The notes under the pieces: model-generated | Database searches by the model: none | Told to the model about the DNA's origin: nothing | What the model saw: the letters and a program-made list of their open reading frames with translations, nothing else | Program-made: the position numbers and the translations under genes | Source: Candidatus Aenigmatarchaeota archaeon | GTDB taxonomy: Archaea > Aenigmatarchaeota > Aenigmatarchaeia > GW2011-AR5 | Assembly (NCBI GenBank): GCA_016184005.1 | Contig: JACPDL010000003.1 | Span: 17,839 to 81,838, forward strand | Length of the DNA stretch: 64,000 nt | Direction: 5' to 3' | Part shown: positions 2,161 through 63,435 of the stretch, one piece after another | Layout: each line of letters begins with the position of its first letter | Position numbering within the stretch: position 1 is the stretch's first letter

Positions 2161-3399
2161 ATGTCCGAACACGATGAAAACGTAGCAGCACACGTAGAAG
2201 AAATTATAGAGTCAGCTTCTAAACCTACTTCTGAAGCTGCTGTAGAGCCTGTCATTGATGCAAATCCTGCTCCAGCTGCTGCTCCGTTGCAAGAACACAC
2301 AGTTGATCATATTATAGCATCTGCTTCGAAGCCTGTTGCGCCGCCGATTGCAAGAAGGGGCGTAAGCTTTGACAACGTCATTGATTTTGAAGCCCACAAG
2401 GCGCGGATCGCAATTTTTGGCTGCGGAGGCGCTGGGAATAATACCGTCACGGCACTGACTGAAAAGGGCATAGATGGCGCATCGACGGTTGCAATAAACA
2501 CGGACGCAAAGCACCTTTACGTGAGCAAAGCACACAAGAAAGTGCTCATAGGAAAGAACCTGACACAAGGATTGGGTGCAGGCGGTTATCCGGAGGTAGG
2601 CAAAAACGCAGCACTTGAGAGCAAAGGAGAGCTCAGGGAATTGCTCAAAGGCGTTGATCTTGTTTTCATCACATGCGGCCTTGGAGGCGGTACAGGAACG
2701 GGTGCAGCCCCTGTCGTTGCACGGATTGCACGCGAAACAGGCGCAATTGTCATAGCAGCCGTGACGCTTCCATTCAAGCTGGAAGGCGCAAGAATTATCA
2801 AGGCAGAAGAAGGCCTTGTCAATCTGCGGCAGGCTTGTGACACGGTCATAGTCATAGAAAACCAGAGACTTCTGGAAATTGCAAAGGACATGCCTCTTAA
2901 GAAAGCGTTTGCAGTCGCTGATGATCTCATAGCCACGATGATAAAGGGCATATCAGAGACAATATCCCAGCCGTCCTTGGTAAACCTGGATTACGCAGAC
3001 GTAAAGGCGATAATGCATTCAAGCGGAGGGGTTGCTTCCATAGGTTTCGGAGAAAGCGATGGCGAAGACAGGGCATTTGAATGCATAAACAAGGCACTGA
3101 ACCATCCGCTGCTTGATGTCGATTACAACGGAGCGACAGGCGCACTTGTACAGGTTATCGGCGGCAACGACATGAGGCTGGATGAAATCAACCGCATAGG
3201 CGAAGTCGTGCAGGAACACCTCTCGCATGATGCGCAAGTAATCTGGGGCGCCCGTGTCCTGCCAGAACTACAGGGCAAGATCCAGGTCATAACCATAATT
3301 ACAGGCGTTAAATCACCATACATCCTTGGCCCTTTGTCCAGGGACGAGAAATCAAAAGTCAAGAAATCCCGGGAGCTCGGGATCGAGATAATAAAATAA
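2161..3399 (+). CDS. ftsZ: Cell division protein FtsZ
   Basis: GCGGAGNN, GLGGGTGTG tubulin signature, NLDYADV; acidic Pro/Ala-rich N-terminal extension. Confidence 0.97.
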   Translation: MSEHDENVAAHVEEIIESASKPTSEAAVEPVIDANPAPAAAPLQEHTVDHIIASASKPVAPPIARRGVSFDNVIDFEAHKARIAIFGCGGAGNNTVTALTEKGIDGASTVAINTDAKHLYVSKAHKKVLIGKNLTQGLGAGGYPEVGKNAALESKGELRELLKGVDLVFITCGLGGGTGTGAAPVVARIARETGAIVIAAVTLPFKLEGARIIKAEEGLVNLRQACDTVIVIENQRLLEIAKDMPLKKAFAVADDLIATMIKGISETISQPSLVNLDYADVKAIMHSSGGVASIGFGESDGEDRAFECINKALNHPLLDVDYNGATGALVQVIGGNDMRLDEINRIGEVVQEHLSHDAQVIWGARVLPELQGKIQVITIITGVKSPYILGPLSRDEKSKVKKSRELGIEIIK

Positions 3400-3516
3400 G
3401 CCCCTTTTCGCGGAGTGTATGACGCACTAAAGTGCGTCTAATCATTCGAAAAGGCCCTTGGGTTCAAAAGAAACTCCAAGGATCCTAATATATGAGAAAC
3501 AGGTGTTTTCTCACCA

Positions 3517-3616
3517 TTAGGAGAGAAGGTTGATACGTGCAAAGAGCAAAGCTCTTTGACGCGTCAGAGAACTTTCAGTTCTCTGCACGAGGAAGAGAAC
3601 CTAGGTTCTCGACTTA
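3517..3616 (+). repeat. Repeat family A, filled allele carrying a 54-nt twin-hairpin insert at 3536-3589
   Basis: Flanks join to the exact reverse complement of 28412-28456 and 52285-52330. Confidence 0.9.
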
Positions 3617-3739
3617 TGCTGACCACACCCCAAAGATAGGCAGTTGGTTTGACTGAAAAGCGCGAAAGCGTGATTTAGGCCTTGCCAACTGCCTACTCTT
3701 TCTTTTTTACAAAACTAGCGGAAGCTATGTCAAGAACTT

Positions 3740-9477: not shown

Positions 9478-9561
9478 TTTTACCAAGTTAACTTATGTTT
9501 CCCTGTTTTAATAGATAGTATGCGCCATCAACAGACATCATTTAAATGAAAGGATAATAAT

Positions 9562-9740
9562 TATCCTCAGAGACATTGAAAACTGCTGTCTTTTCTGCAA
9601 AGGACTTTTAAGAAGTCCTTTGCAGAAATCCAGGAGAGCTTCGCTCTCCATGAATTAGACAGCAGATGAAACACAATGTCTCTGGGATCACATCTTCTCA
9701 CAAACCACCGACTTTAGTCGGTGGTATATTAAGAAGATAT
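9562..9740 (+). repeat. Repeat family B copy 3 with nested twin-hairpin insert at ~9593-9655
   Basis: acattg..ctgctgtct/agacagcag..caatgt stem and ccaccgactttagtcggtgg end hairpin, covarying with B1. Confidence 0.8.
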
Positions 9741-9812
9741 GATCATGGCACAAGCACAGTTATGACCACACATAAACAGTCAGAAATTTTGCGTACGCCA
9801 GTAAAGATTGGC

Positions 9813-14542: not shown

Positions 14543-17500
14543 CGCCTGTATCTGTATTTTCTCAAAAAGCGCAGCTTTTTGGAATTCTCAAAATGCAGAG
14601 CATTTTGGAATCTCGAAAAAACTTTGTTTTTTCGAAGATCTCGGAGAAGCTTCGCTTCTCCCAAGATTACACCCTTCTGTTTTTTACGGATTTTTCTTTT
14701 AGGCTTCTTCTTTAGGCGGAAAAAGACCAGCATGCCCGCAAGAATCACGACCCCGGCAACAGCCAGGCTGGTAGGGGAAGCCGCAACAAGGCCTGTGGGA
14801 CCTATAACCCCTGTCTGGTTTTTTTCAGCGGCAGTTTCGTTTGCAAGCGCCTGGCTTGCAGGCATGACGTTTGTTTTGTTTGTTGCAGGTGCGCCGTTTC
14901 CTGTTATATTTGCTGCAGATTTATGTGCCACGTTTGGCGTTGCATTGCTTAATGATGCATTAGTGAGATTTGGTTTTGCCTGCGGTGCAGGTCTCGCGCC
15001 CCCTCCACCGCCCGAATAGCCGCCTCCGGAAGCGGAAGGACTTGGGCTTGCTGGCGGGGTAAAGGTGAAGGCTATTGTGTTCTTGATTTCATTTCCTGAT
15101 GTATCATTTGCATACAGCACCAGCGTATTCGAGCCCTGGGACGCTGTTATTGTGGTGTTCGTGCAGCCTATAAGTGAAACATTGGAATCGTTGTTAAGCC
15201 TGTACACGCATCCATCAGCGGCAATATTGTCACTGGCAGTGTAATTAAGCGGAATTGACGATGAAGCGTATGTTGTGGATGCGACAGGAGACGTTATAGT
15301 CACATTAGGCGCCTGCGTGTCATTGCCTGCCGCCGCACCCGAGAATGAGGGCAGATAAAGCACTGAGGCATTTGTTGTCATGTTGTAGCAGGGCTTGTTT
15401 GTGAAATCTGCATTGCATGCGCTTTCAATCCTTGTTATGTCAGGCGCGTCTCGTGTGCCATTGAGATAGAAGTAAATGGCATAAACCTGCGGGAATGTTA
15501 TTTTTGCCGCGTAGCTGTTTTCAGGCAGGGCGCCGTTCATGTCTACCCACGCAAGCGAACCGAAGACGCCGCCGCTTTGACTGAAGGCGGACGACACACT
15601 TCCGGCGCCCTCTATGTCGTCTGCTATGCCCATCATATTAGACAGGTTGAGGGCTGATAAATTGAAATCGACTATTTCTATAAGCGTGCCTGTGAGGTTG
15701 AACCTCAGCGTGTAATTCTTTGCGGCATCCAGCGCTGAAACGCTGATCTCATTATCCGTTTCGAGGAATGTCATCGTTATGTTCCTTGCGGAAAGGCTTG
15801 CACTCAGGGAACCGAAATAGGACGTTACATTCTCCCTTGCCTTTATGAAAACAAGCACTTCTTGCGTGGCATTGAAATTGCCGGCCAGGTCTGCCAAGTA
15901 GGCCTTCAGCGTATAATTTCCGTCGCTCAGGTCCAGCGTTTTTGCCCATTCTTTCCCGCCGCCCGACATGCTTTCGTTGACAAAGTTGAGCTCAAGGACG
16001 GCCGAGGAAAGAGGCTCGCTTGCCGTCATGTTTATTGTTATCCGGCTTGTTTCGTGCGTTGTTCCGTTCAAAGGCGTGGGAGAAACAAAGCCAGCATCCG
16101 GCGGTATGCGGTCTATTGATGCTGACATCATGAAAGAATTTGCAGTGTTGCCGGCGAGGTCTGTTGTTTCGAAGTAAAAGCTGATTGTAGTGTTGTGCTG
16201 CAATGAAGTGAGGTTTATAAGAATGCTGCAGTTCCTTGTTCCTGAAAGGCATGCCATGCTGGTATTTGTGAAGTTCTGCGCCGCCCCCCAATAGAGGTTT
16301 GCGCGTCGCAGGTGCATTTCGCTGTACGACAATGAAAAATTCTCATTCAGGCCCCGCATGAAGGTGTTGTTTGCCGGCGAGAGTGCCAGAATCACCGGAG
16401 GCCTTGTATCAAGCGTTATATTCAGCGTCTCAGTTGCCGTGTTGCCTGCAGAATCGTTTGCGTGGATCCTGTAGTTATAAGTCCCGTCATCAGCTGTCTT
16501 GTTGGCGGTGCATGACACCAATGTCCCGTTGTTCAGTTTCACCATCGTCTGGTTTGTCCCGTTCCATTCCAGGATGCAGGCAGAAATGTTTGTTAAGTCC
16601 GAAACACTCACATTGATAAAAATGTAGTTTCTGCTGACAAAAGAATTGTTTACATCTGCTGAAACAATGCTTATAGTTGGTTTTACTGTGTCAATTGTGA
16701 AAATGACTGTTTGCGATGTTGCGTTATTCCTGCTCTGATCGCTGCATGTTACATTAAGCGGATAAGTTCCGTCAGATAGGTTGAGAATATATGAATTTTG
16801 AACCCCAGATGTTGCATTGCCTAAATTTATTTTAGTGCCATTAAGGTTGCGCGAGCATTCCTGCTCTAGATTAAGATCGTCAATAGCTGTAAAGTTGACG
16901 ATTATGTTGTTTTTGTTCAGGAAACTATTGTTAACAGGCCCTGTCAAGTCGACCGATGGAGAAATATTGTCGACGAACTTGTCAGATAGCGTGAAACTTG
17001 AGGTGATGTTATAAGCTGTATTCGCTGAAAGGCTTGATGGAACAAGCCTTGCGGTCCACATTCCAGCCGAGGCGTTAATTGAAACATTGATATGATTAGT
17101 TCGACTCGTGGAAAAAACAGAATTTCCTGAAGTGTTGTAGAGGCCCAACTGAATTGATGCATTGTCAATCCAGCCAATACTCATGCTCAGGAGCGAGTTG
17201 TTTGTTGTATTAATTCTATAATAAGAAATGCCTCCTAAAGTGTTGTTTGTGAAAAACACCTCGCCGAAAGGCAAGAAATTCGAAGCTATTGAATACTTTG
17301 CACTTCCACTTACGGTTGTTGGCAGGACCAATATGTTCCAGTAACCACTTACAGGGTTGGTGACTTTTATCATTTCTTCTGTTTGCAGCACAGAAGCCGA
17401 TGATTTTACAATAGCGCCTGATGGATCCAGAAGTTGTAAGTCGAGATTCTGGTGCACTGAGTAATTCTCAGACCAGTAAACTGTTGCGCGTATTTCTGAA

Positions 17501-24449: not shown

Positions 24450-24815
24450 ATGCCAACAGCAGGTCAGCTTGGACTTAGAAAAGGTGATGTTGTCCGTCTC
24501 GCTACAGTCTACAAAGAATTTGCCGCTTCAGATTTAGCAGGTAATCCGTATTCTGTCAGAAGACTGATGGGCCTTGACATGACCGGAGGGCCAAGGGTTG
24601 AAGTCATAGAAACTCATGTTCGTCATCCAAGCGCTAAAGGATTCTATACTAGAGTTATGTATATTCTCAAAAAGCGCAGCTTTTTGGAATCTCGGAGAAG
24701 CTTCGCTTCTCCCAAGATAGATGACGACCCATATTCAGGAACATTATCAGAAGAGTTGGGATATATCTGGGAAAGGTTTGAAGGTTTCGTGGGACCTGTA
24801 GAAAGATTAAAGTGA
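24450..24815 (+). CDS. Hypothetical protein containing an in-frame 54-nt palindromic insert
   Basis: ORF stays open through 24664-24717. Confidence 0.65.
   Translation: MPTAGQLGLRKGDVVRLATVYKEFAASDLAGNPYSVRRLMGLDMTGGPRVEVIETHVRHPSAKGFYTRVMYILKKRSFLESRRSFASPKIDDDPYSGTLSEELGYIWERFEGFVGPVERLK
24664..24717 (+). mobile_element. Family D 54-nt twin-hairpin unit
   Basis: ttctcaaaaagc-GCA-gctttttggaa + tctcggagaagc-TTC-gcttctcccaaga. Confidence 0.88.
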
Positions 24816-25447: not shown

Positions 25448-25555
25448 TCTTGGGAGAAGCTTCGCTTCTCCGAGATCTTCGGAGAAACTGAGTTTCTCCG
25501 AGATTCCGAAATCCTTTGGATTTCGAGAATTCCAAAAAGCTGCGCTTTTTGAGAA
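25448..25555 (-). mobile_element. Family D element, 108 nt, intergenic between spt4 and rps24e
   Basis: Reverse-orientation homologue of 14559-14666 with compensatory stem changes. Confidence 0.88.
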
Positions 25556-33910: not shown

Positions 33911-33979
33911 AACAAATCCCTTTTCTTTAGGAAAGAAAAGGTCTTTGTAAACCCCAAAAGAAATTCAAGACCTTCTCTA
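33908..33979 (-). repeat. Repeat family E copy 1: hairpin leader ending at the aminotransferase ATG
   Basis: Homologous to 48077-48149. Confidence 0.85.
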
Positions 33980-41125: not shown

Positions 41126-41180
41126 TCTGCAAAGAAGCAAAGCTTCTTTGAGACTCTGAAAAGCTTTGCTTTTCAGGAGA
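41126..41180 (+). mobile_element. Solo ~54-nt twin-hairpin unit
   Basis: caaagaagc-AAA-gcttctttg agact ctgaaaagc-TTT-gcttttcag. Confidence 0.8.
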
Positions 41181-48076: not shown

Positions 48077-48149
48077 AGAGAAGGTTTTTGATATTTCTTT
48101 TGGGGAATACAAAGACCTTTTCTTTAGGAAAGAAAAGGGATTTGTTATG
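48077..48149 (+). repeat. Repeat family E copy 2: hairpin leader ending at the pdhB ATG
   Basis: acaaa-GA-ccttttcttt-AGG-aaagaaaagg-GA-tttgt t ATG. Confidence 0.85.
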
Positions 48150-49441: not shown

Positions 49442-49807
49442 ATGGGCTTGGTTCACATATTCGGAGAAAAACCTGTACCGAAGGTTCTGGATTTCTTTAG
49501 GGTTCATTCTTACTGGGATTATTCACTTAAAGATCTGTCGAAAGCTACAAAGATAAGCCACAGAACTTTGCAGCAGATAATCCCGCAACTTGTTAAGCAT
49601 GGTTTTCTGAAATACACAAGAACAGAAGGAAAAGCGAAAATGTTTATTTTTAATAAAGAATCAAAAATAGCCAAAGAACTGCACGAATTTGCTCGAACAA
49701 TAGATTTTGAGTTTTTATCTACAGACCATAAAAAAAAGCAGCACTCGCCTGAGATTGCCTTTGATCTTGGGAGAAGCGAAGCTTCTCAGAGATTCCAAAA
49801 AGCGTAG
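49442..49807 (+). CDS. HTH protein whose stop codon is supplied by a palindromic insert
   Basis: KVLDFF...DYS...LSKAT.IS..TL; last 13 codons lie in the D element. Confidence 0.75.
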   Translation: MGLVHIFGEKPVPKVLDFFRVHSYWDYSLKDLSKATKISHRTLQQIIPQLVKHGFLKYTRTEGKAKMFIFNKESKIAKELHEFARTIDFEFLSTDHKKKQHSPEIAFDLGRSEASQRFQKA

Positions 49808-49818
49808 CTTTTTGAGAA
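49765..49818 (-). mobile_element. Family D 54-nt twin-hairpin unit
   Basis: Reverse homologue of 24664-24717. Confidence 0.88.
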
Positions 49819-50982: not shown

Positions 50983-52284
50983 ATGCCATACGAATTCAGG
51001 TTTCCCGATGTTGGCGAGGGCATAACAGAAGGTGAGATAGTAAAATGGCGCGTGAAGGAAGGAGATACTGTTAAGGAACATGATGTCATCGCCGAGATAG
51101 AAACAGACAAGGCAATAGTCCAGATACCTTCGCCAAAGAGCGGCAAAATAGCAAAACTCCATCATCGTGAAGGCGATACCATTCACGTAGGAGAAACGCT
51201 CGCGACTATCGCTGAAGAGAATGAGCAGCTTATTTCTTCCACGGAAAAATCCATTGAAATGCCGAAACAGCAGAAAGGTGTCGCTGTTGTCGGCCAGCTT
51301 GAAGAAGCAGCAGATATAGAGCCTGCTGTGAAACAGCCCACGGCTAAGCCAGCCGTAAATGCAGCAAAGCAGGTTACCGGCAAGATGGCTGAAGTGCTGC
51401 CGGCTGTAAGGAGGCTTGCAAGAGAGCTTAATGCCGACATTTCAAGCGTAAAAGGAACAGGGAAAGACGGACGAATAACAGAGGAAGACGTCAGGCAGTC
51501 TTCTCAAGCAGCAGAAAAAAAAAGCGAAGAAGTACAAGAACAGTCTCTTGTCAGGATAGAAAGAAAATACGATATGTACGGTTATGTTGAGCGTGTGCCG
51601 TTGAAAGGCATCAGAAAAGCAACAGCGAAGAACATGGTGAAGTCCATGTTCACAGCGCCGCATGTGACACACATGGATGAAGCTGACGTCACAGAACTTT
51701 CAGCAATTCGCGAAAAAGAAAAGGCAAAAGCTGAAAAGAGCGGCATAAAACTGACTTTCCTGCCGTTCGTCGTGAAGGCAGCTGTCGCTGCGCTGAAGGC
51801 GCATCCATACATGAACGCAAGCATGGATGATGAGCATGGCGAAATAATACTGAAAAGCTACTACAATATCGGCATAGCTATTGACACTACAGACGGCCTG
51901 ATAGTTCCTGTCATCAAGGAAGCAAGCGAAAAAACAATCCTGGAGATAGCAAAAGAAATACAAAAATTTTCTGAAGCCGCTAAGGACAGGAAAATAGATC
52001 TTGCTGACATGAAAGGAGGCACGTTTACCATAACAAACGTCGGCTCTGTGGGCGGTCTGCATGCAACGCCAATAATAAACTGGCCCGAGGCGGCAATAAT
52101 TGCGACTGGACGCATATACGACAAGGCTGTCGTAGCCGGTAAAAAAATTGTTGCAAGAAAGATGATGCCTCTTTCCGTTTCATTTGATCACCGCATAGTC
52201 GATGGCGTAGAAGCAGCCAGGTTCACAAACACGCTGAAAGAGCACTTGGAAGATCCTGAATTGCTGTTGATTGAGGGACGATAA
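50983..52284 (+). CDS. pdhC: Dihydrolipoamide acyltransferase E2
   Basis: ETDKA lipoyl site, GTG..GRI, FDHRIVDG. Confidence 0.95.
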   Translation: MPYEFRFPDVGEGITEGEIVKWRVKEGDTVKEHDVIAEIETDKAIVQIPSPKSGKIAKLHHREGDTIHVGETLATIAEENEQLISSTEKSIEMPKQQKGVAVVGQLEEAADIEPAVKQPTAKPAVNAAKQVTGKMAEVLPAVRRLARELNADISSVKGTGKDGRITEEDVRQSSQAAEKKSEEVQEQSLVRIERKYDMYGYVERVPLKGIRKATAKNMVKSMFTAPHVTHMDEADVTELSAIREKEKAKAEKSGIKLTFLPFVVKAAVAALKAHPYMNASMDDEHGEIILKSYYNIGIAIDTTDGLIVPVIKEASEKTILEIAKEIQKFSEAAKDRKIDLADMKGGTFTITNVGSVGGLHATPIINWPEAAIIATGRIYDKAVVAGKKIVARKMMPLSVSFDHRIVDGVEAARFTNTLKEHLEDPELLLIEGR

Positions 52285-53596: not shown

Positions 53597-53618
53597 ACTA
53601 ATATCTCATGACCTGATT

Positions 53619-53726
53619 CTAATCAAACAAGTGGCTGTTGCCGCAATTCTCGCATTCGTCAGGCTTTTCCTCGTAGGTGCGCATGCAGTAATGGCAGTGA
53701 TAATGTTTTTTCTTTATACTTTTCAT
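53619..53726 (-). CDS. Small Zn-ribbon protein, 35 aa (MKSIKKKHYHCHYCMRTYEEKPDECENCGNSHLFD)
   Basis: CxxC-x10-CxxCG; AGGT upstream. Confidence 0.65.
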   Translation of the reverse strand: MKSIKKKHYHCHYCMRTYEEKPDECENCGNSHLFD

Positions 53727-53738
53727 ATTATTACCTAC

Positions 53739-53894
53739 TAGGAAAGAGGTGTAGAGAGGAGATCTGCAAAGAACATAGTTCTTCTTGCAGAAACCTTTGG
53801 TTTCTGAAGACTCAGGAAAGCTTTGCTTTCCTCGAGTTGAGACCTCAGAGAACTTTTAGTTCTCTGCAGAAAACCCTAGGTTTTCTCCTTCTTA
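53739..53894 (+). mobile_element. Three-level nest: A-like hairpin > 54-nt unit > 54-nt unit
   Basis: Removing 53783-53836 and then the rest of 53763-53870 restores a perfect hairpin at each step. Confidence 0.82.
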
Positions 53895-54914
53895 GGTTAT
53901 GCAGACTTTTGGAGGATTCTTGATGAATTCCTCAAGCAGTTTTATCGCATTCTCGACATCTTTCATGCTGGCCATTCCGATTGTCGAGTGTATATTCCGC
54001 ACGGCAATTCCTACCACTGTAGCCGGAACGCCTTCGCGCGAAAGCGATATGCTCAGTGCGTCTGTGGTGCCTTTATCGCCTACATCGTACTGGATTGGTA
54101 TGTTTTTCTGTTTTGCTATGTCTGTCAGCCAGTCATTCATGCACCTGTTTGTTATCATGCCCGAATCTTTCAGCGTTATGCATGGTCCCTTGCCAAGTAC
54201 GTTCGATTGAATCTTGACCCCTTTATCCTCCGCGTTAGTTACGTCAACTGCAACGGCAAGGTCAGGCTTTATCTTGTATGTGGAAGTTTTTGCGCCGTAA
54301 AGCCCTATCTCCTCTTGGACTGTGAAGACATAGTAAGTATCGCTTTCAGTCTTCTTTGACAGTTTTGCAAGCTCCATGAGCACGTAGCAGCCGATCCTGT
54401 CATCCAGCGCCCGCCCATAAACAACGTTGTTGTCAGCAAACATCCCTATTTCCTGCTGCAGCGAAATAAATGAGCCTACCTTGACATCCTTCTTCAGCAG
54501 TTCCTCTTTGCTTAAACCCGTGTCTATGTACATATCAAGGCTTCTTGGCATGCTGTCAGTCATGTCGCCGTTGCTTATCTCTGCTGTAGTTATGACGCCG
54601 TATACAGGTTCTTTGCCCGCCTTGATTTTAACCCTCTGGCCGATCAGCGTCAGGGATTCTATACCGCCTACCCGGGAAAATATTATGGCGCCGTCAGAGT
54701 CTATGCCTTTTACCATAAGCCCTATCTCATCCATGTGGGCCGTGAGCATAACCCGAGGCGTGTCGCCCTTCTTGTGTGCTATAAGATTTCCTATGCTGTC
54801 CACAGTCACTTCGTCGACATGCTTCCTTATTTCCTTCATTATAAGGTCGCGTACCTCTGACTCATCACCGCTTATGCCGTCCGTTTCCATCAGCCTTTTC
54901 ATCATCTCAAACAT
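53892..54914 (-). CDS. M42 family aminopeptidase
   Basis: AHMDEIG, ALDDRIG, VQEEIGL.GA, GTTDA, NIHS. Confidence 0.93.
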   Translation of the reverse strand: MFEMMKRLMETDGISGDESEVRDLIMKEIRKHVDEVTVDSIGNLIAHKKGDTPRVMLTAHMDEIGLMVKGIDSDGAIIFSRVGGIESLTLIGQRVKIKAGKEPVYGVITTAEISNGDMTDSMPRSLDMYIDTGLSKEELLKKDVKVGSFISLQQEIGMFADNNVVYGRALDDRIGCYVLMELAKLSKKTESDTYYVFTVQEEIGLYGAKTSTYKIKPDLAVAVDVTNAEDKGVKIQSNVLGKGPCITLKDSGMITNRCMNDWLTDIAKQKNIPIQYDVGDKGTTDALSISLSREGVPATVVGIAVRNIHSTIGMASMKDVENAIKLLEEFIKNPPKVCIT

Positions 54915-54919
54915 CCAAA

Positions 54920-56233
54920 TCACCGTCTATTTAATTCTTTTATCGAGTCCTCTATTATATCTATGCCATTGTCCGCCTGTTGCCGCGTGAGTGTCAGGGG
55001 CGGGCATATTCTTATCACACTCATGCCAGCTGGCAACAATATGAGTCCTTTTTCGCTTGCCTTGCAGAGCACCTCTTTTCTTTCTTCAACTGCAGGCATG
55101 CGGGATTTCTTGTTTTTGACCAACTCCACACCTATCATCAATCCTAAGCCACGAACGTCGCCTACTATTTCATATTTGTCCTTGAGTTCATTCAGCCTCT
55201 TGAGCATATGTTTTCCAATCTTTTGCGCATTTTGTCCCAACTTTTTTTCTCGCATGAATTTCAGCGTTGCTATGCCTGCTGCGCATGCCAATAAATTGCC
55301 GCCAAATGTATTTGCGTGTGAGCCGGGAGCCCAGTCCATGACTTTTCTGCCTGCAACAGTTGCGCCAAGCGGAACTCCTCCGCCGATTGCTTTGCTCAGA
55401 GAAACTACATCCGGCACAACACCAAAGTTCTCTATTGCCAGGAACCTTCCTGTCCTGAAACAGCCTGACTGGACTTCGTCGTCGCAAAGAAGCACTCCGT
55501 ATTCATTGCATAGTTTTCTCACGCCTTTGACGAACGATCTTGGCGGCACGATATAGCCGCCTTCGCCCTGCACAGGCTCGAGGAATATAGCCGCCACATC
55601 GCCCCTTTTCAATCGAATGGCTCTTTCGAGTTCAGTCAGGCAGTAAGAGCTGCAGTCTTCCGGTTCCATCTTCATGCGGTAATGATATGGAAAAGGCGCA
55701 TGCTTGACAGGCAGGAAGGGTGAATATCTGCCGCGCTGAACCGGCTTGGATTTTGTCAGAGAAAGAGAGCCCATTGTTCTTCCGTGGAAAGCATTCTCGA
55801 AGGCGATGACCCATTTCCTCTGACTATGCCATCTTGCAAGCTTGTACGCCGCTTCTATGCTTTCTGTGCCTGAATTAGACAGGAAAACGGTATCAAGCTG
55901 CTTGTGCATGAAAGTCAACAGGAATTCTGAAAACTCCAACGGAAGTTCGGCATAGAAATCAGAAAAAGCAGCATGTATCCCGAGCTTTATCTGCTTGTGG
56001 AGTGCCTTCTCTATCACTGGATTCGTATGGCCTATGCCAGCCACAGCCACCCCAGCAGCAAAATCTAGGTAGCGACGACCGTCAACATCATAGACATAGC
56101 AGCCTCTGGCGCGCTTGAAGACAAACGAGTATTCCCTTGTCAGCGAAGGCGATATTATTTTATGGTCGCGTTCGATTATTCGTATCGATTTCTTTCCTGG
56201 TTTCCTGCAGATGAATTGTATTTTTCCCATCAT
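54920..56233 (-). CDS. Class III PLP aminotransferase
   Basis: NSGTES, FHGRT, EPVQGEGG, DEVQSG..RTG, TFGGN. Confidence 0.93.
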   Translation of the reverse strand: MMGKIQFICRKPGKKSIRIIERDHKIISPSLTREYSFVFKRARGCYVYDVDGRRYLDFAAGVAVAGIGHTNPVIEKALHKQIKLGIHAAFSDFYAELPLEFSEFLLTFMHKQLDTVFLSNSGTESIEAAYKLARWHSQRKWVIAFENAFHGRTMGSLSLTKSKPVQRGRYSPFLPVKHAPFPYHYRMKMEPEDCSSYCLTELERAIRLKRGDVAAIFLEPVQGEGGYIVPPRSFVKGVRKLCNEYGVLLCDDEVQSGCFRTGRFLAIENFGVVPDVVSLSKAIGGGVPLGATVAGRKVMDWAPGSHANTFGGNLLACAAGIATLKFMREKKLGQNAQKIGKHMLKRLNELKDKYEIVGDVRGLGLMIGVELVKNKKSRMPAVEERKEVLCKASEKGLILLPAGMSVIRICPPLTLTRQQADNGIDIIEDSIKELNRR

Positions 56234-63196: not shown

Positions 63197-63340
63197 TATC
63201 CGCAACATTGTTACATAAACAATGTTGGGATGACACCTTGCAGAACAAAGTTCTGCGAGGTCTCGAAGAGCTTTGCTCTTCGAGGATGCTCTCAGAATCC
63301 CACGATTGAAGTCGCGGGAGTATTAAGAGCATATCATTTA
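63197..63340 (+). repeat. Repeat family B copy 2 with a 51-nt twin-hairpin insert at 63236-63286
   Basis: Reverse complement of 3740-3862 apart from different inserts and a few substitutions. Confidence 0.88.
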
Positions 63341-63435
63341 CACTATGCCTGATGTAATCACTTCAAAATAATGATTTTTCCCTCAAAAGCCATTTTAAAG
63401 TATTGCCTGCAGTATCAATAACAGAGGTGACAACA

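Follow-up and report, generated by a model that had tools for sequence, protein, structure and literature searches.

Positions 53739-53894 of the DNA analysed here, a 64,000-nt window of the genome of a DPANN archaeon from groundwater (Candidatus Aenigmatarchaeota; 0.92 Mb in 5 contigs; named G000 below), hold a three-layer composite of small non-coding elements. An A-like hairpin element of ~50 nt is interrupted by a 108-nt block at 53763-53870, and this block is a 54-nt two-hairpin element (the middle element) that carries a further 54-nt two-hairpin element (the inner element, 53783-53836). We consider it probable that the 108-nt composite, which belongs to a mobile 54-nt family, was inserted ready-made into the older A-like hairpin, and that this was a gain in the G000 lineage. 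Coordinates refer to the window unless a contig is named, and G001 and G002 are congeneric genomes. The layers, and a separate element that had been used for comparison by a first-pass annotation made from the sequence alone, are as follows.

53739..53762, plus strand: A-like host element, left part, up to the end of the hairpin's 5' arm; it joins 53871-53898 directly in G001, G002 and the JGI contigs, fits the A-like profile from 5 uninterrupted copies, and its left arm equals that of the G001 ortholog
53763..53870, plus strand: 108-nt composite, middle plus inner element, a unit without counterpart at this place in the relatives
53763..53782, plus strand: first (5') 20 nt of the middle 54-nt element, with the onset of its first hairpin
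53783..53836, plus strand: inner 54-nt two-hairpin element, hairpins at 53788-53806 and 53814-53832 (-16.7 kcal/mol, z -8.2)
53837..53870, plus strand: last (3') 34 nt of the middle element, comprising the end of its first hairpin, its second hairpin (53846-53866) and its terminus
53871..53898, plus strand: right part of the A-like host element, which together with 53868-53870 makes an intact 8-bp hairpin (53868-53886)
41126..41179, plus strand: comparison element of 54 nt with two hairpins, absent from the G001 ortholog (-16.4 kcal/mol, z -7.8)

The first-pass annotation had described two excisions that would undo the nesting, and both gave the products it had foreseen when carried out in silico. 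Removal of 53783-53836 rejoins an 8-bp hairpin and leaves a 54-nt two-hairpin unit with the architecture of the element at 41126-41179, while removal of 53763-53870 restores an 11-bp hairpin within the A-like element that ends at the stop codon of an M42 peptidase gene. The inner cut can be shifted by 1 nt (T) and the outer one by 3 nt (AGA). Four perfect hairpins with stems of 8-9 bp and loops of 3 nt lie at 53788-53806, 53814-53832, 53846-53866 and 53868-53886, and a split fifth hairpin begins at ~53767. Folded as single-stranded DNA, the 176-nt region reaches -38.7 kcal/mol, compared with -19.1 +/- 2.9 for its shuffles (z -6.75; 0 of 200 as good), and the structure is beyond chance expectation. 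The reconstructed intermediates also fold as predicted, the two-level form at -21.0 kcal/mol (z -5.4) and the one-level form at -10.8 kcal/mol (z -5.5). Rfam has no family for the region; the top match, mir-2009, reaches 21.4 bits where the gathering score is 90.

The absence of the block in relatives is the decisive evidence for the observation. The ortholog in G001 (peptidase 98% identical, flanks 92-97%) and that in G002 (peptidase 86% identical, flanks 80-87%) both lack the 108-nt block and show the predicted hairpin, each with one base changed. Metagenome contigs that bridge the site were empty in 4 of the 4 runs examined, which come from four studies (a skip of 108 nt in X7, X9 and X12, and of 109 nt in X8), and the two JGI contigs that contain the left flank (L177, L178) are both without the block. 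The filled form is present in six runs of two studies, and those runs are possibly the source of the G000 assembly. In all relatives examined an A-like element occupies the locus. Because G002 is a more distant congener than G001 and both are empty, parsimony favours a gain in G000. The opposite history, a composite that was ancestral at the locus and was lost precisely and independently from G001, G002 and the metagenome strains, would fit presence/absence patterns that are clean and scar-free throughout, the occurrence of three-layer composites in G002, by which the composite predates the species splits, and the fact that change runs in both directions (43 of the 107 clean indels between G000 and G001 are extra in G001). 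We find it quite unlikely, as it takes at least two and probably three exact losses (the G001 type, G002, and X8 with its slightly different junction) where one gain suffices, and the ends of the block have 3 nt in common and no long direct repeats to drive a deletion.

The composite is not confined to this locus. G000 contains three copies of the 108-nt unit, the focal one, C1:43714-43821 (101/108 identical) and C4:417776-417868 (92.5% over 93 nt), and each interrupts an A-like hairpin at an identical point. At a second of these loci (C4, 417.8 kb), the G001 ortholog is again an uninterrupted A-like hairpin. Filled A-like copies in G000 number 3 and uninterrupted ones at least 13, with near-identical right arms; the A-like profile behind such searches (nhmmer, 5 uninterrupted copies) does not reliably recover split copies. 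Such a set, with the block at the identical point in every filled copy, is also what ectopic gene conversion might produce, a filled copy having donated the 108 nt through shared arms with no transposition at the locus. The left arms argue otherwise. Those of the focal and the 417-kb copies differ from each other and are each identical to their own G001 ortholog, remaining locus-specific to ~6 nt from the junction, so that on this side the copies have homology in common over no more than ~6 nt. This makes gene conversion over a long tract unlikely, and it makes a preference for the insertion point likely. In addition, the family also enters unique DNA without homology (20 of 26 events, by our reading), and on this balance we judge gene conversion an unlikely origin of the focal block.

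The composite is found three times in G000, and a 54-nt-only form of the focal locus was not seen in the X7, X8, X9 and X12 contigs nor in the 2 JGI contigs, so the composite probably arrived ready-made and not by two local steps. The nesting in three levels described by the first-pass annotation is real and its layers can be cleanly removed, whereas the locus itself documents a single step from 0 to 108 nt. Of the intermediates that it had expected in relatives, the fully empty form exists at the locus, the middle-only form exists elsewhere, and the 54-nt-only form at the locus is the one that was not recovered. Uninterrupted homologues of the middle element occur at G001 C31:5116-5169 (89% over 54 nt), at C3:8104-8156 and at other places. 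An A-like element combined with a middle element whose hairpin is unbroken was found at five G001 loci, in one X8 contig and once in the window:

3518..3617, plus strand: paralog with one step less, an A-like variant that carries an element of the middle type with its first hairpin unbroken

At one pair of orthologous loci the inner 54 nt are the whole difference, being present in G001 (C56:22698-22751) and missing in G000 (C4:~378575), with flanks ~97% identical and with the arm position and orientation seen at the focal locus. The window copy near 3540 had been considered as the ortholog of the G001 C56 copy and was rejected, the true ortholog being the one at G000 C4:~378575. The surroundings of that window copy are themselves variable: a 220-nt block of several small elements at ~3398-3619, which includes the 3518-3617 copy, corresponds to 18 nt in G001 C23. 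Many short metagenome contigs stack on 53779-53839, that is, on the inner element. By our reading the inner element moves independently. The nesting of inner in middle element appears to be old and recurrent, the composite seems to travel as a unit, and the focal gain would be one step that followed the split from G001.

Simple tandem duplication was the account that the first-pass annotation had set against its own. In a wider form this is growth in place, in which adjacent hairpins were duplicated in tandem or multiplied by replication slippage and then diverged. The regular period of 26-28 nt and the similarity of the spacers could favour slippage. Tandem Repeats Finder, however, reported no tandem repeat in 53600-54000, and the four stems differ in sequence, which excludes simple tandem duplication. 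The same 108 nt recur at unlinked loci with 92-94% identity, identical 54-nt units lie in unique DNA, and a single-hairpin unit (~27 nt) accounts for none of the 11 clean indels below 45 nt that were listed. Growth in place is on these grounds extremely improbable.

The elements at the focal locus are no isolated case, and the genome is rich in hairpins. Perfect hairpins (stem of at least 7 bp, loop of 3-5 nt) number 943 in the genome, compared with 169 in block-shuffled sequence; adjacent ones are spaced 26-28 nt from centre to centre, and in G000 they form 137 arrays with two to six members each. We refer to the 54-nt two-hairpin elements as family 1. They carry short inverted termini of 4-5 nt, of the type TCTY...RAGA. 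Alignment of the whole of G001 (811 kb) to G000 (650 kb aligned, 93.8% identity) yielded 107 clean indels, 64 with the additional sequence in G000 and 43 with it in G001, and their size spectrum has its sharpest peaks at 54 and 108 nt (18 of 107): 12 indels measure exactly 54 nt (21 when the range is widened to 51-57 nt) and 6 measure exactly 108 nt. By our reading, 10 of the 54-nt indels and every one of the 108-nt indels consist of two- or four-hairpin arrays. The element at 41126-41179 (G000 C4 58963-59018) is one such presence/absence polymorphism, with a gap of 0 in G001 against 54 in G000. Across 26 polymorphic family-1 events, the BLAST overlap at the junction was 3 nt or less in 18 and 6 nt or more in 8, with no fixed length, and the focal junction shares 3 nt; family-1 insertion occurs without a fixed target duplication. 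From these comparisons we read the 54-nt elements as non-autonomous small mobile repeats.

Of the order's 70 genomes, 20 have a match to the commonest 54-nt element (13 genera out of 36), and it is 86-93% identical even where the peptidase is ~50-64% identical, in other genera and families, which suggests either horizontal spread or strong constraint. Its exact 27-mer had no match among IMG/VR viral contigs. Within the window, further copies of this element or of its 108-nt four-hairpin form lie at 14560-14667, 24665-24718, 25453-25551 and 49771-49814, the first of them being absent from G001. Polymorphic inserts also occur in reading frames: 3 of the 26 lie in phase within long open frames. 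At window ~51351, within the frame 50983-52284, G001 has an in-phase insert of 108 nt that adds 36 residues (SLGRSETSSRS...) to the linker that connects the lipoyl domain with the E3-binding domain in the E2 acyltransferase, and the other two in-phase inserts encode peptides similar to it. Two arrays of G000 (C4:104431-104559 and C4:153623-153672) are likewise located inside stop-free putative frames, of 514 and 471 codons, and read LGRSETSSR....

The sequence differences between copies are not evenly spread. The focal composite and the C1 copy differ at 7 places, every one of them in the four loops, and in the third copy a compensated stem pair is found besides, so that stems are kept while loops drift. 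Loops also flip. Among 35 co-oriented copies, the loop of one hairpin is TTC in 15 and the reverse-complementary GAA in 9, and the corresponding numbers for the 108-nt type are 14 and 5 of 22. Orthologous hairpins with identical stems and differing loops included 4 exact loop inversions in 21, a count which may contain paralogous best hits. Loop variation combined with stem retention suggests that the hairpins form in vivo, as do the flip and flop loops, which also suggest the inversion of whole small palindromes.

Conserved or compensated stems with variable loops would equally be expected if the hairpins were mainly functional RNA or DNA signals, such as bidirectional terminators or transcript stabilisers, and if selection instead of mobility explained their conservation and their perfect stems. 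The identity of the commonest element (86-93%, beside ~50-64% for the peptidase) agrees with such a role, as does a T5 run in one arm. Oligo-T is an archaeal termination signal. A signal function leaves the presence/absence polymorphism and the steps of 54 and 108 nt unexplained, copies sit in frame inside open reading frames, and convergent gene ends are not clearly favoured: with a crude gene model, 17 of the 137 arrays lie between convergent genes, 11 between divergent and 65 between tandem genes, and 43 inside frames. We regard this explanation, taken in place of mobility, as very unlikely; being compatible with mobility, it is no true alternative to it.

Some caveats apply to this account and to the observation itself. 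The metagenome runs were available as assembled contigs, in which rare variants are lost, and a 54-nt-only form of the focal locus may have been missed for this reason. If excision of the elements is precise, the polarity of presence and absence is not certain, and the one in-situ event that involves the inner 54 nt alone (G001 C56 versus G000 C4:~378575) may have run in either direction. The outer cut can alternatively be placed so that the 8-bp hairpin is left whole and just 3 outer pairs are parted. Finally, the naturally empty hairpin has an unexceptional energy in its 71-nt context (z -1.1, with 30 of 200 shuffles as good).

The first-pass annotation had further proposed that extruded hairpins are targeted, since both insertions break a stem arm, and this was not borne out. 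Insertion sites in the 26 polymorphic family-1 events were, by our reading, hairpin arms or loops in 4 cases, centres of other elements in 2 and other DNA in 20. When hairpin pairs were virtually excised, with a 5-nt margin that excludes the focal inner cut, a deep palindrome re-formed in 12 of 190 and in 16 of 188 cases, compared with 82 of 4000 random sites, an enrichment of ~3-4 fold. A 3-nt margin gave 36/190 and 65/188 positives and was rejected, these being mostly an artefact of complementary spacers that lengthen an adjacent hairpin. An enrichment of 3-4 fold could also come from the tolerance of insertions in non-coding repeats, in a genome of which ~86% is open frames (crude gene model), so that extruded hairpins can be proposed as targets only tentatively. 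What does argue for a preference for certain sites is that two A-like copies, each with its locus-specific arms retained, hold the same composite at an identical point. Nesting is common in general: pairs lie within the central spacer of other pairs, forming 'onions' of 108 and 162 nt, two-hairpin units are nested in the loops of family-2 palindromes (for example at window 9551-9649), and poly-pyrimidine/purine hairpins host them as well. In G001, two-hairpin units have often inserted into perfect 10-bp pyrimidine/purine hairpins such as those at window 33919-33941 and 48116-48138, and a 54-nt element with a pyrimidine/purine hairpin at window 48084-48130 is absent from G001.

Putting these observations in order, the A-like element would be the oldest layer at the locus. 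After the split from the nearest congener, the 108-nt composite would have entered the 5' arm of the A-like hairpin, 5 nt ahead of its loop, already holding the inner element in the 3' arm of the middle element's first hairpin. More generally, the 54-nt elements insert into unique DNA and into reading frames as well as into other palindromic elements, where they are found in stems, loops or centres, and composites, once formed, would spread as units. Insertion leaves no fixed target duplication, and the elements might also exit cleanly. Their movement may involve a single-stranded or hairpin-forming intermediate and an enzyme that acts in trans and makes no staggered cuts.

A Y1/HUH-type transposase is the best candidate for the mobilising enzyme, although we hold it to be less likely than not. 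In G000, three contigs break off inside a Y1_Tnp gene (at the ends of C3 and C4 and the start of C2), each within the last 35 codons of the gene and with the same downstream hairpin, and G001 has three full genes. The starts of C1, C3 and C5 have another repeat end in common, and a multicopy IS200/IS605 element breaks the G000 assembly. One of the Y1 genes of G001 (C60, near 18000) adjoins a run of N, probably a masked or scaffolded stretch. A second family of elements, family 2, is 117-119 nt long and consists of a hairpin within a hairpin, with palindromes like IS200/IS605 ends; judged by these palindromes it looks like a PATE. Family-2 composites with a two-hairpin unit in the palindrome loop or centre occur at window 9551-9745 and 63203-63341, and the block at 63204-63341 is absent from G001.

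For the 54-nt elements themselves, several results speak against the Y1 route. Next to the resident Y1 genes the hairpins have the form CCACCG...CGGTGG, like family 2 and unlike the 54-nt elements, and the Y1 genes of G001 are flanked by these other hairpins and not by the 54-nt elements, as would be the case for the RAYT gene of a REP/REPIN system. Inspection of the 26 events by eye revealed no conserved 4-6-nt target beside the inserts, in elements that are near-symmetric and of uncertain orientation. Fifteen copies on the 549-kb contig C4 are of mixed orientation, with no apparent replichore bias. Co-occurrence of element and Y1 is weak in 70 genomes that are related and incomplete (10 with both, 10 with the element only, 14 with Y1 only and 36 with neither), and G005, a two-contig genome, has copies of the element and no Y1 match. 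Lastly, no transposase-like frame was noticed by eye, without a family search, in eight stretches bounded by family-1 elements; the frames seen there were ribosomal-protein-like, Nudix-like and surface-protein-like. The A-like elements were also considered as classical MITEs of a DDE transposon: two polymorphic A-like insertions (G000 C4 166631 and 10756) have 10-nt BLAST overlaps at the junction that we read as direct repeats of ~7-10 bp.

A bolder reading, which we hold to be rather unlikely, is that the self-nesting 54-nt elements of DPANN archaea form a class of their own. They would move by a structure-guided, duplication-free route that recognises the tips or arms of extruded palindromes and is driven by a type of enzyme new to transposition. 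Such elements would invade IS200/IS605-derived and other small elements as well as each other, flip their loops and cross genera at ~90% identity. If this were true, the focal locus would be a case of 'parasites of parasites', three layers deep.

The genes at either side of the composite are the following.

53892..54923, minus strand: M42 family aminopeptidase gene, the upstream neighbour (Pfam PF05343 Peptidase_M42, 3e-89)
53619..53726, minus strand: open frame of 35 amino acids with a CxxC...CxxC pattern, the downstream neighbour, conserved in sequence in G001 and G002

The right part of the A-like element spans the stop codon of the peptidase (53892-53894). The short CxxC frame has a weak, sub-threshold match to Zn_ribbon_NOB1 (E 0.0025, 18.3 bits against a cut-off of 24.9). 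Both frames are on the minus strand, so the effect of the composite is a longer spacer between two genes or frames of the same direction.

These elements bring behaviour related to that of the small mobile repeats (SMRs) described in 2011 in one haloarchaeon into ultra-small DPANN genomes of ~0.9 Mb, and family 1 combines in-phase entry into reading frames with ~90% identity across genera. Two near-complete congeners with dozens of clean filled and empty sites make a workable system for finding the enzyme and for asking whether its substrate is hairpin or cruciform DNA. There is also a practical side for annotation, since the elements can lengthen spurious frames and break the assemblies of such genomes.

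Our literature searches on such elements in DPANN archaea found no report, and the systems to which they can be compared are in other organisms. The Rickettsia palindromic elements are tolerated in frame in protein genes, as some family-1 elements are; they are bacterial and longer (~100-150 bp), and hairpin nesting is no hallmark of theirs. The very small dispersed repeats of Nostoc are reportedly nested in one another (Elhai and colleagues are said to have described this in 2008), and IS1397 and ISKpn1 insert into the loops of REP palindromes. Nesting or loop targeting is alike in these cases, while the organisms and the sizes of the elements differ.

REP, BIME and REPIN sequences with their RAYT enzymes are short, abundant palindromes, mainly intergenic and either single or clustered, as presented in the relevant part of Bertels and Rainey (2011, PMC3116915), where REPs are thought to move as hairpin DNA by means of a Y1-type enzyme. 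According to the same part of that source, a REPIN is bacterial and its two inverted REPs make one long hairpin, whereas the archaeal elements described here have two different hairpins side by side. PATEs and the IS200/IS605 elements, which are moved by Y1 HUH enzymes through 'peel and paste', share with our elements the palindromes near both ends, the lack of target duplication and scar-free presence and absence; the genus has Y1 transposase genes, and family 2 fits the class. The 54-nt elements differ from it in that their hairpins are unlike those beside the resident tnpA, so that their end palindromes do not correspond, and in having short inverted termini, no visible target oligonucleotide and no strand bias.

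By description, and not by sequence, the closest described analogue of the 54-nt elements appears to be SMR-A of Haloquadratum walsbyi (HqIRS42/43/55). In the part of Dyall-Smith et al. (2011, PMC3119063) that deals with these elements, SMR-A is ~110 bp long, its inverted termini have no relation to known transposons, it makes no target duplication, and its mobilisation is termed enigmatic; 104 of 114 events were into PATEs or IS605-type elements, at near-terminal palindromes, and 52-bp forms that consist of the PATE/IS605 termini only are considered possibly mobile. Like SMR-A, the 54-nt elements have no coding room for a transposase, possess inverted termini, make no target duplication and vary between close genomes, and both kinds insert into palindromes and other mobile elements. 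They differ in size (~110 bp for SMR-A against 54 nt here, or 108 and 162 nt as nested composites) and in target use, 4 of 26 recent inserts having hit hairpins here while the 104 of 114 SMR-A events given in that part of the source went into elements of the PATE/IS605 type. The elements of this window also differ from SMR-A in their build of two side-by-side hairpins, in their repeated nesting in one another, and in a host that is a DPANN archaeon instead of a haloarchaeon.

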